The notes below the pieces were generated by a model. That model did no database searches. It was not told where the DNA came from and saw nothing but the letters and a program-made list of their open reading frames with translations. Of a stretch of 7,441 nt of DNA, positions 1 to 7,441 are shown piece by piece. The DNA lies in IMG/VR virus record IMGVR_UViG_2531839579_000023; one strand, given 5' to 3'. Positions within the stretch are counted from its first letter, which is position 1. Every line of letters starts with the position of its first letter. This stretch comes from a virus (Duplodnaviria > Heunggongvirae > Uroviricota > Caudoviricetes). The translations under genes were made by a program, and so were the position numbers.

Positions 1-219
1 AATTCATAGATATTTTTTACCATCCTATGGATTTTTGGGCGTTTTCTAAGTTTTTTCAGATGGTTGTATTTTTTCTAAAAACTCCTGATCTCGATTTTGC
101 TGTTTGTCTGAGACCTTTTTATGTCCCATATATGCCCCAAGGTGCCCCATGTAAATCCAATTCAACTCAAAGCATCCCTGTTCAATATTTTTACAAGGGG
201 CTTGCATATCAGTGTTTTT

Positions 220-786
220 TTATTGCGTAACGTCAAACGCTCGGATTGAGCGTAAATCATCAAGATTATTCAGCTCTTCCTTCATCTCCCGCTGACGACG
301 ATAAATCTCGTCATTGCGATCGGCCTGTGCCCGTGCCATTACTGCCGCAAGTTCTTCCAGTTCCTGCATCGTCAGGAGGATTGGCGTATTCTCTCCATCT
401 CCCCAAACAATTGTTTCTCTGCCAGCTCCTGATTTCGCCGCCATTACCACTGGTAAGAGGCGGGACAGCGAAACCGGACCAGCATTCCATTTGTGACCTT
501 TCCATTCCAGCATGAACGACATGGACTCCTGTTCCTGACGCCATACTTCGATCTCACACACTTTAGCCTCTTTTTCTGCGGCAATAAGTTCAGGCGTAAC
601 GGTAAACCGGGCTATTCCGCCCCACTTCCCGCTTTGCAGTTCCTGCCAGACCTGTTTACCCATTTCCGCAACATCATTCTCAACAGCGGTATAAGGTAGA
701 TGTACCTCCTGCCCCTCCAAAAGCACTTCACAATATACAGCACCATCCTCCAGAAACATGGCATTTCTTATATTTTTTATCTGCAT
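220..786 (-). CDS. Putative tail fibre assembly / chaperone protein (Tfa-position ORF, 188 aa)
   Basis: Uninterrupted 188-codon ORF (MQIKNIRNAMFLEDG...RSIRAFDVTQ). Its ATG (784-786) lies 6 nt after the stf-like stop (793-795) on the same strand, the usual fibre/chaperone arrangement. It does not resemble lambda Tfa as I recall it, so the function is inferred from position and size only. Confidence 0.45.
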   Translation of the reverse strand: MQIKNIRNAMFLEDGAVYCEVLLEGQEVHLPYTAVENDVAEMGKQVWQELQSGKWGGIARFTVTPELIAAEKEAKVCEIEVWRQEQESMSFMLEWKGHKWNAGPVSLSRLLPVVMAAKSGAGRETIVWGDGENTPILLTMQELEELAAVMARAQADRNDEIYRRQREMKEELNNLDDLRSIRAFDVTQ

Positions 787-792
787 ACTCTG

Positions 793-2688
793 TCACCCGA
801 CCCGCACAAATAATCCTATATACGCTTCCTTTCCGTTGGTGGTATAAAGACCATCTCCCCCCAGAGACTGATACACTCCGGGAAATGCCGATGTATTCGT
901 TCTGCCAATGACAAACGTTGCCTCCCCTTTCATTGTGCCTGCTCCTGTCACGCCTCCCACTACTATTTCCACCGGCGCAAGTGCTTTTCCCGGGCATGGT
1001 TGTCCACGACTCAGGCGCATTAAAACTCCACCTTCCGCTACTCCCAAAAAAGCTGCCATAACCACACTGCCGATATCCGGTTTCGGCGAACTGATACTTC
1101 TTAAAAATTCATCCTTTGATAATTTGCTCTGAGCCTCATCCATTACCACTTTGACCGCTTTTGGGGTTGCCGCCAGTGACTCGGAAGTGCTGTTTGTCGC
1201 ACTACTGAGTTGTACTATCCCTTTCTGTGCTGTCGTTGCATTCTGTGCGGTGTATTTCCCGTTAGCCAGGTCATACGCGGCCTTAACTGCTTTTGGCGTT
1301 GCCGCCAGGTCGAGTCTGTTGTCGCACTCTGAGTGTACTATCCCCTTTTTCGTCGTGCTCGCATCCTCAAGCGCCACGGCGATGCAATATCCTCTGCCCG
1401 TTTTGCGCTGTCTCGCGCGCGTTGCTGCGATTCGCCGTACTTTGCTCTGGCTGCGCCGTCGCACTACCAGCGCCTCGTCGCCTTCGTGGATGCCGTCGTG
1501 GCGCTGCCCTTCGCTGCTGACGCCTGTTGGTCGCCTCATCTTTTGAAGCAGACGCCGATGATGCCGATGACGCCGCCGAACTGGCGGACGATGCGGCAGC
1601 CGTTTTTGAGGATTCTGCACGGGTTTCCGACGCTTTCGCGTTCGTTTCGGATGTCTTCGCTGCGGAAGCAGACCTCGCTGCTGCGCTGGCCTGTTCAGTG
1701 GCTTCGCCAGCCTTCGTTGTGGCTGTTGAAGCAGACGATGCGGCACTTTCTGCCGACTTTCCGGCAGCGGTGGCACTGGCTGAGGCCTGCCCGGCACTTG
1801 TTGATGCGGCACTGGCAGATGATGCAGCCGCTGTTTTTGAGCCTGCCGCAGCTGAGGCGCTCTGTCCCGCTGCCGTTTCAGAAGACCTGGCGTTCGTCTC
1901 GGACGTTTTTGCCGCCTTCGCGGAATTTCCTGCCGCCGTTGCCGAGGAAGCGGCACTACTGGCGCTTGATGATGCGTTCGTTTCTGATGATTTCGCTGCC
2001 TCTTTTGAGGCCGCCGCATCCCGGGCTGAGGTGGCGCTTCTGACGCTTCGTGGTCGCGGGGATGCAGAAGTGGCTGCGATTTTGTGACGCTGCGCATTCG
2101 TTTCTGACGTTTTCGCCGCACGGCACTGGTAGCGCCGCGCTTTTTGAGGACTCTGCAGCGCAGCACTTTTGATGCTTCAGGCTTTGTTGATGCCGTTCCG
2201 CGCTGGAAGAGCCTGAGCCGACGCGCGGCCTGCCGGCTGAGTGCTGGCGCCGGCTGAGCCTGAGCATCAGTCGCATGGGTTGCCGCCTCACGGCGATGTG
2301 CGGCATCCTGGCTGACTTCTTGCGGCTGCCGTGTTCTGTGCCACCCGGACGCGTTACGCGCCACTCTTCCACCATCAGTCAAACGGCGCAGTGCCTCGGA
2401 CGGCATCATCCTCCGTCATGGCACCGAGAAAATCATTCAGCGTACCGGTCGGATCTTCATACACGTGATGGTCCCGGCATGTGACGGCGGGAACCTCCAC
2501 CAACAGAATAACGCTGTACTGCCGTACTCAACGTCCATGCTGTAACGCCCGGCTTCATCCGGATTTTCTGAGGCCAGCGTGTTCACCACCACCGTGGTGC
2601 TGTTACGTTTTGCTTTCAGCTGGATTGTGCAGTTCTGTACCGGTTTTCCTGTGCCGTCTTTCAGTACACCTGAAATCTTTACTGCCAT
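793..2688 (-). pseudogene. stf: Side tail fibre protein Stf-like, frame-disrupted as given
   Basis: N-terminus from ATG 2686-2688 reads MAVKISGVLKDGTGKPVQNCTIQLKA...NPDEAGRYSMDVEYG, near-identical to recalled lambda Stf (orf-401); the ORF track starts 2 codons earlier at a GTG (2694). My manual translation of 1527-2087 in a third minus frame gives the lambda-like Ala/Ser/Thr-rich shaft (...ATSARDAAASKEAAKSSETNASSS...AAKTSETNARSSETAA...). The C-terminal part is in the frame of the 793-2409 ORF (...IAVALEDASTTKKGIV...LAATPKAVK...). The N-terminal frame hits a stop at 2437-2439 and the lambda-like text moves between frames, so no single frame encodes the protein. Confidence 0.8.
1153..1345 (-). 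repeat. Tandem ~132-bp direct repeat inside stf encoding a ~44-aa tail-fibre repeat motif
   Basis: Two adjacent copies: plus-strand core 1174-1215 and 1306-1338, flanked by the shared cttttggNgttgccgccag. Copy 1 encodes TAQKGIVQLSSATNSTSESLAATPKAVK; copy 2 is a shortened version. The motif matches the tail-fibre repeat known from lambda Stf and Rac StfR-type fibres. Confidence 0.7.
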
Positions 2689-2753: not shown

Positions 2754-3343
2754 CAGAATTTATAACCGACACCCACGATGAAACCGTCAGTGCGCCAGTC
2801 ACCACTGCCGGAGCCTTCATAAGCAATATCAATGGCCACGGATTCGGTCGGGTTAAACTGCACGCCAGCCCCCCACGCCAGAGACGTGTTGCTGTGGCGA
2901 CCGTCATCACTTCCGGTCAGCACATCGTGCTTTTCCCCTTGTTGTCAGTTACGCGAGATAATCCCCGGAGAAAGTCGACACACGGCTGTAAGCCACACCC
3001 GCCATCGCATACGCGCTGAACCATTCATTCACGCGCACAGACGGCCCGCCATCACGCTGAACCAGCGGTTACGCACGGAATCTCATGCCAGCGGGTATCG
3101 CTGTATGCGTTTTTTGCTCATCTCAGCTTGGCATAACTGAAGACGTAATCAGCCCCAGCGGTCCGTAAACTCATAACGGTATTTCACGTTAATCCCGTTC
3201 AGATTATCGCTGCCGGGAGCGTTCGTACGGGCATGAAGATACCCTGCGCTCAGTGTGGCCTGCTGCTCAGACGCCCATGCAGGCGCACCGGATACGGCCA
3301 GACAGATGGCTGCGGACAAAATGGCTGCACAAACTTTACGCAT
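2754..3343 (-). pseudogene. lom: Lom outer-membrane protein (Ail/Lom family), frame-disrupted as given
   Basis: Start ORF 3149-3343 reads MRKVCAAILSAAICLAVSGAPAWASEQQATLSAGYLHARTNAPGSDNLNGINVKYRYEFTD, near-identical to recalled lambda Lom with a cleavable signal peptide. Manual translation of the 3' end gives ...HDVLTGSDDGRHSNTSLAWGAGVQFNPTESVAIDIAYEGSGSGDWRTDGFIVGVGYKF, stop at 2754-2756. Between about 2935 and 3170 the Lom text continues only by switching frame several times. SD gagagg lies 6 nt upstream of the ATG. Confidence 0.85.
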
Positions 3344-3410: not shown

Positions 3411-4850
3411 TCAGCTGATACTGATGCCTGCGGTGGCTTTCTTCATCACCACAACCAGCAAATCGCTGATACTTGCTGTGGGATACCAGTCATTTACCAG
3501 CCATGATGACACCGAAAACTCCAGCGTCATGTGGCCGCGACCAGCTGGCATATCAATAACACCACTGTAAATCAGCGTATTATCCAGCGCGGTACGGTTA
3601 TAAATTTCAGCACCGTTTTTCCGTACTATCAGGCGGCATGACGAATAAATATCGTTATTCTCCCTCTCATGTTTAGCGCCGCTGAATGCCACCGCCGGAA
3701 TAACAATCTGCCGGTCAAACGGCTGATCGTCATAAACCCTGACGGTGATGGTCCCTGATGGCCACCGTTCCGGTGCACGGGAGTCCCGGGGGAAAGCTTT
3801 GCCCACTGTTTTAACGAGATCGCCTTCAATCTGGTTGGCGGACAGTTTTCCCAGAACCCGACAGTTCTCGTTAATCGTGACGTTGTTGAGCGTCCCGGAG
3901 TTCGCATTCACGTTACCGCTGATATCGGCATTTTTCGCCGTCAGCCGCCCGTCCGGTGTCAGGGAAAATGCCGGAGGATTACCGCCGCTGGTAATGGTCG
4001 GAGCCGTCAGGCGTTTCAGGAACACGTCGTTCATGAATATCTGATCGCCCTGACCAACAAACATTGGTCTTGTGTTGCCATTAGACGGATCAATAAACGC
4101 GATACGGTTAGCGGCAACCAGGAACTGGCTCAGCTTGCCTTCTTCCGTGTCCTCCATGCTGAGGCCAATACCCGCGACATAATGTTTGCCGTCTTTGGTC
4201 TGCTCAATTTTGACAGCCCACATGGCATTCCACTTATCGTTGGCGTCCTTCCACTCTTTCGAAAACTCCTCCAGTCTGCTGGCGTTATCCTCCGTCAGCT
4301 CGACTTTTTCCAGCAGCTCCTTGCCGAGATGGGATTCGGTTATCTTGCCTTTGAAAAAATCCAGGTAACCTTCCGCATCATCGCTCGCCCGACCGACGGC
4401 CTCCACGAATGCCGATTTGCCAACGGTGTTCACACTGCGGATATAAAAGTAATAATCATGGCCCGGTTTGATATTGATACTGGCAGCTATCCAGTACAGC
4501 GCCGAGCCAAGATAGCGGGCTGCGGTTTCAACCTGCCTGATATCCGCAATCCGCTTTTCCGAGAACCAGAACTCAAACTGTACCGTCGGATCATAAACCG
4601 CAAGATGCGGCGTGGCGGTTATCTGAAAATACCCCGGTGTCAGCTCAATCTGCGACGGCGCTGCCGGTGCGGCAATCCGGAACGATACCGATGCCGGATC
4701 GCCCTGCTGCCCCCACGCATTTACTGCCCGGACTGTCAGCCTGTAGTTCCCCAGCGCCAGTTGTGTGAAGCGGTATGTGGTTTCCGCCGTCCGGGCTGTG
4801 CTGACCAGCCGCTCACTGCCGTCATCCGCTGCCACGGTCAGGCGAAGCAT
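3411..4850 (-). CDS. J: Tail-tip host-specificity protein J, C-terminal 479 codons (uninterrupted portion)
   Basis: ORF reads ...[61 protein letters not shown]...[33 protein letters not shown]..., near-identical to recalled lambda J over roughly 330 aa, then a diverged last ~150 aa. The listed Met is internal; this is the 3' part of a longer gene whose upstream part is frame-broken. Confidence 0.9.
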
Positions 4851-6727
4851 GAACTCACGCCCTTCACCACCTTCGGCGTTCCCAGCGGCCAGACCTGATA
4901 CTCCCCGCTGTCTGCGGTGACTTCGCGGTCAGTGCTGCACGCTGGCGGCGTGACACCATTACCGTGCCGCTCTGGTCGCCGTCAAAGTGCGCCCCGTTAT
5001 CCACGATGGCTCTTTTTCCGGTACATGCTGCACGGCGGTGATGGCATACGTGCCGTCTCGTTCTCACGGATACTCACGCAGCGGAACAGGCGCTGGCGCA
5101 CGTCGGCAGCTTCAGCCCCCAACGCTGTATCGCAACGCCGTCAGGAACACGGCTCACTTTACCTTCACGCCGTCGGTGACGGACTGACCTCCACGCTGAC
5201 CGGATCCCTCCGTCAACCAGGCTTATCAGCGTGGTCCGGAGATGGCAGCGTGATTTCACGGTCGAGCGTCAGCGTCCGGGTCTGGCTGTTACCGCCAGCA
5301 CGCGCCCCGGTGCGATACCGCATAGTCATCATCGCAGATTTCAATGACATCCCCGGTACATGGCGAAGCCCTTCGCACCCACGCTGAAGTCCACGGTCTG
5401 CGTTTCCAGCAGTTCGTTTTAATCAGCCACAGCCCGGCGCGGTGGCCTGCCCCCGGCTGGTACAGCCAAAGCATCCATCTTCGTGACGTTACGACCGTAA
5501 CGGGCAATGGCCTGCGTTCTCACAAGCTCTGTCGCCGTCTCCCAGCCGTTATCGGGTCAATCCAGTTCACCTCAACGGCATTATGGCGGTCTTCAGGGCG
5601 CTGAACTGTAGCGGAACGGCGCCCATCATCCGGCATCACCACATTACTGCGGTTATAGGCCACACCTTATCGAGGTCGGTCCTGCACGAACGTCAGCTCT
5701 GCCCGTTCCATACCGGCATACAGCGCATCGCGAGCAGAAATCACTGAGCACATCCCACGCTTCGCTGGTGGTCAGAGCATTACAGGTGATGCGCGGCTCC
5801 GTGCCGCCAAACCGTCCGGCACGACTGGTCGCAGTACTGGCCGATAATACAGCGCCCATTTTCCACATCGCCGCACCAAGACGTTTCCCCATGCCGTAGC
5901 GGGATGGGTCAGCATATCCCACAGACACCAGGCCATGTTTTGCTGTATGCTGGCTTAAACGTTCCGTCCCAGATACCGCTGTATTGCCGGTCTGCGGGTT
6001 ATAGTTCGACGGCACCTGCAGAATACGCCCGCGCAGATGATAATTACGGCTCACCTGCTGGCTGCCGAACTGCTCCGATCCACCTGACGCCGACCAGTGC
6101 CGTGTTCGGGTAGCACTGTTTCACATCGATATTTCGGTGTATGACGACCAGAGCGTTTTGTTCTGCAGCTGGTCTGTGGTGCTGTCCGGCGTCATCTGCG
6201 CATCCGGATATTAAACGGGCGCGGCGGCAGGTTATCCACCACCACCGAGGCCAGATACTGGAGTGGTTTTGCCCTTAATGGTGATGTCTTTTTCCGTCAC
6301 CCAGCCACCTTACGTGTATCTGAACCAGCAGGCGACTTCCGACGGATTCCGTCCCCCTTTGAGGTGGTTTCCACCAGTGCCTGCACACCGAAGGTAAAGC
6401 GCAGACGGTCGATGTTTGCCGACGTGATGGTCCGGGTATCGGCGTGTCTATTTCACTTCCGTACCCAGACCGTCTCGGACCGAGATTCAAATCCCTCCGG
6501 CGGTGTCTGTCCTGCTCACCTGCCCGGAACACCACCGTGACACCGAGATGTTGTATTCCCCTCACTGTCCAGCACCGGGTACTGTTCAGCAGCACGCTTT
6601 TTAATCCATCCACCGGACCTTCAACCGGCCCTTCGCTGATGGCATCGATCACACTCAGCAACTGCGTGGACTTCAGGTTGTCCTTCGCTTCGCGCGGGGT
6701 ATGCCCCTTACTGCTGCCTTTACCCAT
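4851..6727 (-). pseudogene. J: Tail-tip host-specificity protein J, N-terminal ~two-thirds, multiply frame-disrupted as given
   Basis: ATG at 6725-6727 with SD ggag 8 nt upstream; first 50 aa MGKGSSKGHTPREAKDNLKSTQLLSVIDAISEGPVEGPVDGLKSVLLNST match lambda J. Lambda-J-like text then continues in pieces on different frames (6275-6727, 5653-6054 QVSRNYHLRGRILQVPSNYNPQT..., 5289-5507 ...HRAGLWLIKT...GDVIEICDDDYA, 5074-5259 ...TALISLVDG...KVSRVPDGVA, 4864-5067 ...AIVDNGAHFDGDQSGTV), with stops between them. Confidence 0.8.
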
Positions 6728-6749
6728 TCGTCATGCTCCATAAACGACA

Positions 6750-6769
6750 AAACCGCCCGGAGGCGGTTT
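6750..6769 (-). other. Perfect 8-bp stem / 4-nt loop hairpin in the I-J intergenic spacer
   Basis: Plus strand aaaccgcc cgga ggcggttt (6750-6757, loop 6758-6761, 6762-6769). On the minus strand it is followed by tgtcgtttatggagc and the J ATG. The structure is seen directly; its function is unknown. Confidence 0.5.
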
Positions 6770-6787
6770 CACATAAAACATTTTGCA

Positions 6788-7441
6788 TCAGCGACCAATC
6801 ACCACAACCTGACCACCATCCCCTTCGTCTGCCGTGCTGATCTCCTGAGAAACCACACGTGACCCCACGCGCATTTCACCGTACAGAACAGGCAGAACAT
6901 TGCCCTGGGCAACCATGTTATCCAGTGAGGAGAAATAGGTGTTCTGTTTGCCGTTATCCGTTGTCTGTGTACGGGGAGTTCTGGCTTTCGGTGCCAGCAT
7001 CTGCGCCACACCACCGAGCACCATACTGGCACCGAGAGAAAACAGGATGCCGGTCATACCACCGGCCCCAATGGCTGCCCCCCATGCTGCAAGGGTGGCT
7101 CCGGCGGTAAAGAATGATCCGGCAATGGCGGCAGCCCCCAGGACAATCTGGAATACGCCACCTGACTTGGCCCCGGCGACTCTGGGAACAATATGAATCA
7201 CAGCGCCATCAGGCAGAGTCTCATGTAACTGCGCCGTTAACCCGGACGTGCTGACGTCCCGCCCGGCAATCCGTACCTGATACCAGCCGTCGCTCAGTTT
7301 CTGACGAAACACCGGGAGCTGTGTGGCCAGTGCGCGGATGGCTTCAGCCCCCGTTTTCACACGAAGGTCGATGCGGCGGCCAAATCGTTGCAAATCCCCG
7401 TAAAGGCAGATGCGCGCCATGCCCGGTGACGCCAGAGGGAG
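6788..7441 (-). CDS. I: Tail assembly protein I (gpI), 5' end beyond window
   Basis: ORF reads MARICLYGDLQRFGRRIDLRVKTGAEAIRALATQLP...GEMRVGSRVVSQEISTADEGDGGQVVVIGR, near-identical to recalled lambda gpI (223 aa). Lambda gpI has about 13 more N-terminal residues, so the true start is probably just past position 7441. Stop at 6788-6790. Confidence 0.9.
   Translation of the reverse strand, partial: LPLASPGMARICLYGDLQRFGRRIDLRVKTGAEAIRALATQLPVFRQKLSDGWYQVRIAGRDVSTSGLTAQLHETLPDGAVIHIVPRVAGAKSGGVFQIVLGAAAIAGSFFTAGATLAAWGAAIGAGGMTGILFSLGASMVLGGVAQMLAPKARTPRTQTTDNGKQNTYFSSLDNMVAQGNVLPVLYGEMRVGSRVVSQEISTADEGDGGQVVVIGR

Follow-up and report, generated by a model that had tools for sequence, protein, structure and literature searches.

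We found that the stf side tail fibre gene of an enterotoxigenic Escherichia coli (ETEC) prophage carries a shortened second repeat that is not a biological feature; as judged from sequence comparisons, it is very probably a consensus artefact that arose when a short-read draft assembly collapsed a repeat. The window (the whole stretch of DNA that we analyzed, 7,441 nt) corresponds, in reverse complement, to the final 7.4 kb of draft contig AQBU01000187.1 (GCA_000358575.2) from the ETEC isolate E. coli P0305293.11, and this contig ends 2 nt past the window, inside prophage tail genes. Because the window matches the end of AQBU01000187.1, the anomaly is present in the deposited record. The DNA represents the distal tail module of a lambdoid prophage (I, J, lom, stf, and a DUF4376 gene) beside ydfJ (the Qin site), with all genes on the (−) strand. 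Our main intact reference was L001 (LR883006.1), the chromosomal prophage of isolate L5_E1779 from the same ETEC lineage, while L012 denotes a paralogous prophage in the complete genome of strain 602354, also of this lineage. The features of the window are as follows.

1..1300: segment unique to the locus, with a DinI-like remnant, the DUF4376 gene, and the distal stf remnant with copy 1; 0 differences from L001
220-786 (−): DUF4376 gene
~793-2694 (−): stf side tail fibre gene, with wrong-frame stretches
1174..1215 (−): copy 1, Phage_fiber_2 (PF03406) repeat core of stf, 42 nt, CAGTGACTCGGAAGTGCTGTTTGTCGCACTACTGAGTTGTAC, intact
1306..1338 (−): copy 2 of the same PF03406 repeat core, 33 nt, CAGGTCGAGTCTGTTGTCGCACTCTGAGTGTAC, 9 of 42 columns gone
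1308..1530: deletion zone 1 (stf), 20 bases gone, no insertions, 13 of the 20 on L001-versus-L012 differences
2035..2525: deletion zone 2 (N-terminal part of stf), 43 bases gone
2753-2923 and 3149-3343 (−): two ORFs of the split lom gene, broken by deletion zone 3
2930..3160: deletion zone 3 (lom), 10 bases gone
3411 to 6727 (−): J, many ORFs in place of what should be a single 3.4-kb gene
3411..4850 (−): C-terminal part of J, a stretch without deletions holding a 479-aa ORF deposited as ENG44205.1
4853..6578: deletion zone 4 (N-terminal two thirds of J), 79 bases gone, J broken into many short ORFs
6600..7441 (−): start of J and tail assembly gene I (I at 6788-7420), intact, allele unlike that of L001

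The first-pass annotation described copy 2 as copy 1 minus nine bases, with no substitution. Both the coordinates and the strings proved exact, and chance was excluded as the source of this relation: none of 200,000 shuffles of the 33-mer reproduced an ordered subsequence of copy 1, nor did any of 200,000 random 33-mers drawn from the window. The absent columns are 4, 6, 7, 10, 13, 16, 22, 31, and 37. The translations it gave were recovered on the (−) strand (VQLSSATNSTSESL for copy 1 and VHSECDNRLDL for copy 2), and copy 2 does stay in frame, since nine is a multiple of three and the local frame is thereby kept. It had also reported ordinary substitutions between the flanks of the two copies, which are real because the intact references show the same ones. 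Copy 1 is identical to L001:1674-1715 and sits in the part of the contig that has zero differences from L001. Comparison with related prophages, which the annotation had proposed as a check, revealed that copy 2 normally is full length, 42 nt, in every intact relative (CAGTGACTCGGAAGTACTGTTTGTCGCACTGCTGAGTTGTAC in L001, L002, L004, L007, and L010), in agreement with its view that the deletion-only pattern reflects an artefact and not evolution.

In these relatives, intact copy 2 differs from copy 1 at two of the 42 columns (16 and 31). Since both are among the nine dropped columns, copy 2 of the window resembles "copy 1 minus nine"; nine random removals from intact copy 2 would give the same subsequence relation 4.5% of the time. 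The relation of copy 2 to copy 1 is a by-product; it is intact copy 2 and its paralog that copy 2 of the window should be compared with. When copy 1 of L001, copy 2 of L001, and copy 2 of L012 (CAGCGTTTCAGACGTACTGTTGGTCGCACTGCTGAGCTGTAC) were aligned, the invariant columns spelled the 33-mer of the window exactly, which is therefore a subsequence of all three. Seven of the nine variable columns are differences between L001 and L012, and the other two are the sole differences between copies 1 and 2. The alternative alleles at columns 16 and 31 could have come from copy 1 reads or from a third paralog. We did not adopt the idea that copy 1 reads were cross-aligned onto copy 2 and supplied these two columns, given that copy 1 shows no damage and lies in flanks markedly different from those of copy 2.

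Next, we mapped the deletions across the window by a gap-tolerant global alignment against L001. A default pairwise MAFFT alignment was set aside, as it packed the dense deletions into block gaps and false mismatches (217 "substitutions"). The gap-tolerant alignment revealed that 152 bases are absent from the window, in the four zones listed above, with few substitutions and essentially no insertions. Specifically, the J-lom-stf region contains 148 events, 142 of which are single bases. The four bases are hit equally (T, 38; G, 38; A, 34; C, 32), and 65 of the 142 events lie beside an identical base versus ~62 (44%) expected by chance, i.e., without homopolymer enrichment. Neighboring deletions occur as runs in some places (AC at 1309, CCT at 2214, and TA at 5205), and no ambiguity codes are left in the window.

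At the protein level, the window ORF at 793-2409 still matches PF03406 in two stretches (96.9 bits against a cut-off of 22; E-value, 5e-28), compared with 126.9 bits (E-value, 2e-37) over two repeats for stf of L001. The N-terminal PF08400 domain, found in L001 at an E-value of 5e-72, is no longer detected in stf of the window. The 537-aa product of 793-2409 consists mostly of wrong-frame nonsense rich in Arg, Pro, and Gln. On the opposite strand, an antisense ORF at 1527-2087 (+) encodes 186 aa (MVASSFEADADDADD...) across from the portion of stf that is rich in Ala, and the source contig has a gene call for it (5357-5917 in L003); it has no Pfam match, and the repetitive GC-rich codons that it faces most likely gave rise to it. 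The deposited product ENG44205.1, a "fibronectin type-III family protein" of 479 aa from E. coli P0305293.11, is a fragment of J, and this fragment was found in one public contig only, AQBU01000187.1 itself.

The same locus is present with intact lom and J in five complete ETEC genomes (that of L001 included), and every reference has lom as an intact gene of 600 nt. Five complete genomes of the lineage match the chromosome adjoining the prophage (6,804 nt) at 100% identity and equal length, so that unique DNA is free of indels across 8.1 kb (window 1-1300 plus this flank). Among 5,256 matches to window 1240-1540 in 5,426 complete E. coli genomes, none exceeded 93.1% identity, and the best matches, among those listed, all span 321 nt versus 301 nt in the window. 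Searches of the genome, viral, and metagenome collections gave no exact match to the 33-mer. In comparison, the deletion-free zones 1536-2029 and 6600-7441 have equal-length matches of 99.5-99.6% identity in other genomes. Complete genomes of the same lineage contain 4-8 places that match the window, a count that describes related genomes and serves as a proxy for the number of copies in the source strain.

Some features of the locus are shared with intact relatives. The stf gene next to ydfJ is annotated as truncated at its C terminus even there (L001 1608-3251), and a DUF4376 gene (L001 560-1286) occupies the place where a tail-fibre assembly gene is expected, followed by the DinI-like remnant. 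This combination is a natural remnant architecture common to the lineage.

We then compared the deleted positions with the variation among prophage copies. When eight reference prophages were considered, polymorphic positions accounted for 129 of the 152 deleted bases versus 353 of 2,691 retained bases within these zones (odds ratio, 37; p, 2e-81). With ten references, these numbers rose to 140 of 152 (92%) and 368 of 2,691 (14%), respectively (odds ratio, 74; p, 1e-96), leaving 12 deleted bases on positions invariant in all ten. To look for a paralog, we combined the alternative alleles into a hypothetical second copy and used it as a query, which located a real paralogous prophage, L012. This prophage alone differs from L001 at 97 of the 152 deleted bases versus 108 of the 2,691 retained ones (odds ratio, 42; p, 1e-81). 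The boundary of the damage also agrees with the extent of the paralog: L012 cannot be aligned to the left of approximately position 1270 of the window, and deletion zone 1 begins where paralog homology begins (~1270-1308). In the J zone, 54 of the 68 differences between L001 and L012 are deleted, seven show the L012 base, and seven show the L001 base. Since these remaining 14 sites are split evenly between the two alleles, both haplotypes appear to have fed the consensus, which is the signature of a mixed pile-up.

Approximately one third of the deletions call for a further paralog beyond L012. Such a paralog is resembled by L009 in J (4850-5700), where it explains 16 of 17 residual sites. The J allele of L009 is common (504 records at ≥99% identity), with genomes of the lineage not among the best 60 of the 504. 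We also tried L004 as the second paralog and rejected it, as it is near-identical to L001 in stf, its differences in J are almost a subset of those of L012, and it explained only one additional deletion. Deletions are absent from the stretches 2531-2924 and 6586-6990, though L012 and L001 differ equally there.

Because the deletions track inter-paralog differences, the unique DNA is clean, and the window lies at a contig end, we consider a collapsed repeat to be by far the most probable explanation. According to this scenario, the source genome would contain several lambdoid prophages with stf, lom, and J genes ~96% identical to each other, the paralogs of the source strain itself being represented here by proxies from related complete genomes. 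The assembler would have merged reads of these copies into one sequence over the four stretches, and no base would have been written at columns where the merged copies disagreed, so that only agreed columns survived. The outcome would be scattered one-base deletions without substitutions or insertions. The collapse was presumably patchy, sparing 2531-2924 and 6586-6990. As to the final software step, we infer one of two events: a gap call made by the consensus caller, or the later stripping of an ambiguity symbol. A gap call could come about in overlap-layout assemblers if a mismatch column were divided into two columns, each half gaps, and both were called as gaps.

The version in which IUPAC codes or Ns at mixed columns were deleted by later formatting or clean-up is a possible but less favored form of the collapse, to which we assign a minority share of the probability given to the collapse as a whole. 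It predicts that all mixed columns vanish, adjacent ones together, as seen for the runs at 1309, 2214, and 5205; it also agrees with the lack of any remaining ambiguity code. The deposited record is version.2. Nothing in these observations separates stripping from a gap called by the consensus module. However, a base was written at 14 of the 68 L001-versus-L012 differences in the J zone, which fits a threshold vote better than blanket stripping, unless the source's own paralogs agree at these 14 sites.

The methods reported for sibling isolates bear on these readings. The P-series of ETEC colonies from ICDDR,B patients was sequenced by Illumina HiSeq2000 at >200x and assembled with Celera Assembler (PMC4462620), and P0305293.1 is described as a 2011 isolate from Bangladesh (PMC4309559). 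The strain-name series, together with this listing of P0305293.1, suggests that P0305293.11 belongs to the PMC4462620 set and, hence, that the same methods apply. A literature search by accession (AQBU00000000, AQBU01, and GCA_000358575) found no paper.

The first-pass annotation attributed the missing bases to base-dropping errors, which would mean that the sequencing chemistry or a low-coverage consensus lost bases at random. Divergence by deletion only, its high local density (9 of 42 in copy 2), and the proximity of the region to the contig end are all in line with this proposal, which we nevertheless regard as very unlikely and which is the part of that annotation that did not find support. 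Random loss does not account for a deleted set that falls on known polymorphic sites in 92% of cases, versus 14% of retained bases, or for a 33-mer that consists of exactly the columns invariant among three known sequences. The deletions show neither base bias nor the homopolymer bias typical of 454, Ion Torrent, or nanopore data, and the 8.1 kb of unique DNA alongside are free of indels. Moreover, random read errors cannot reach the consensus at the depth reported for the Illumina data.

Another reading is that the lesions are genuine, with ~150 real one-base deletions in a heavily pseudogenised cryptic prophage. The setting is suitable for decay: tail genes of prophages at the Qin/ydfJ site are often remnants, stf is truncated here even in intact relatives, and the neighboring K gene is frameshifted in L001. 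However, the flanks are 100% identical to those of relatives with intact lom and J, and decay would thus need ~150 deletions in 4 kb with none, and no substitution, in the 8 kb of flank. A mixed mutation spectrum is not seen, as insertions and larger deletions are lacking, and the deleted positions coincide with paralog differences. Furthermore, no genome matches the 301-nt stretch above 93.1%, the 33-mer is missing from three large collections, and the lesions occur in no relative, making decay extremely improbable. Still harder to credit, in our judgment, is that the one-base gaps are real products of recombination or gene conversion between prophages, in which each mismatch of the resulting heteroduplex became a one-nucleotide deletion. 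If true, such heteroduplex-to-deletion conversion would add to homeologous recombination a mutagenic outcome that has not been described before.

Several observations concern segments and reference loci outside the deletion zones. The I allele of the window encodes 210 aa and departs from L001, L012, and L004 at 7030-7260, where its Gly/Ala-rich middle lies. Over the surrounding segment 6600-7441, prophages of unrelated E. coli strains, e.g., BH100, match at 99.5% identity with no indels; the prophage of the source strain is either a mosaic or intact in itself but joined, in a chimeric contig, to another prophage at the exit from the collapsed repeat. The Ala-rich middle of stf (1536-2029) is likewise free of deletions and carries neither the L001 nor the L012 allele: at 12 differences between these two, it has the L012 base at seven and the L001 base at five, together with further changes of its own, and its best match elsewhere is 99.6%. 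A true recombinant allele and a majority-vote chimera are both possible readings of this segment.

Among the references, the 46-kb circular record L004 (NZ_LR883007.1, "plasmid 2" of L5_E1779) comprises the complete genome of a lambdoid phage, in which lom, J, and K carry frameshift annotations. In the tail region, it hardly differs from L001 on the chromosome of that isolate; L004 may represent a copy that was excised or is extrachromosomal and that was assembled with indel errors. The C40 peptidase (K) gene beside I (L001 7978-8562) is frameshifted in L5_E1779 and intact in strain 602354, and the frameshift may be an error in the former assembly.

Compared with known systems, the window shares with collapsed-repeat mis-assemblies its near-identical multi-copy sequence (judged by proxy), errors at inter-copy variant sites, clean unique flanks, and a contig break inside the repeat. 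Such mis-assemblies usually yield a chimeric majority consensus or ambiguity codes, whereas here the variant columns are omitted, which mimics frameshift pseudogenes. As with the homopolymer indels of 454, Ion Torrent, and nanopore reads, single-base deletions create spurious frameshifts; unlike those indels, the deletions in the window are not enriched in homopolymers, are confined to repeated DNA, and are tied to paralog-variant sites. The underlying gene is of the lambda Stf/StfR type (PF03406 repeats and PF08400) but differs from it in the window by the undetected N-terminal domain and the corrupted copy 2.

In the cell, the tail-fibre gene (the stf remnant), lom, and J are almost certainly intact. 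GenBank now holds spurious gene fragments that derive from the artefact, such as ENG44205.1, and approximately 200 sibling genomes came from the same pipeline (PMC4462620), in which collapsed multi-copy prophage genes may show similar pseudo-frameshifts. The signature described here, i.e., one-base deletions only, at inter-paralog variant sites, with clean unique flanks, offers a simple reference-based test, with which studies of prophage decay could avoid taking such regions for pseudogenes.
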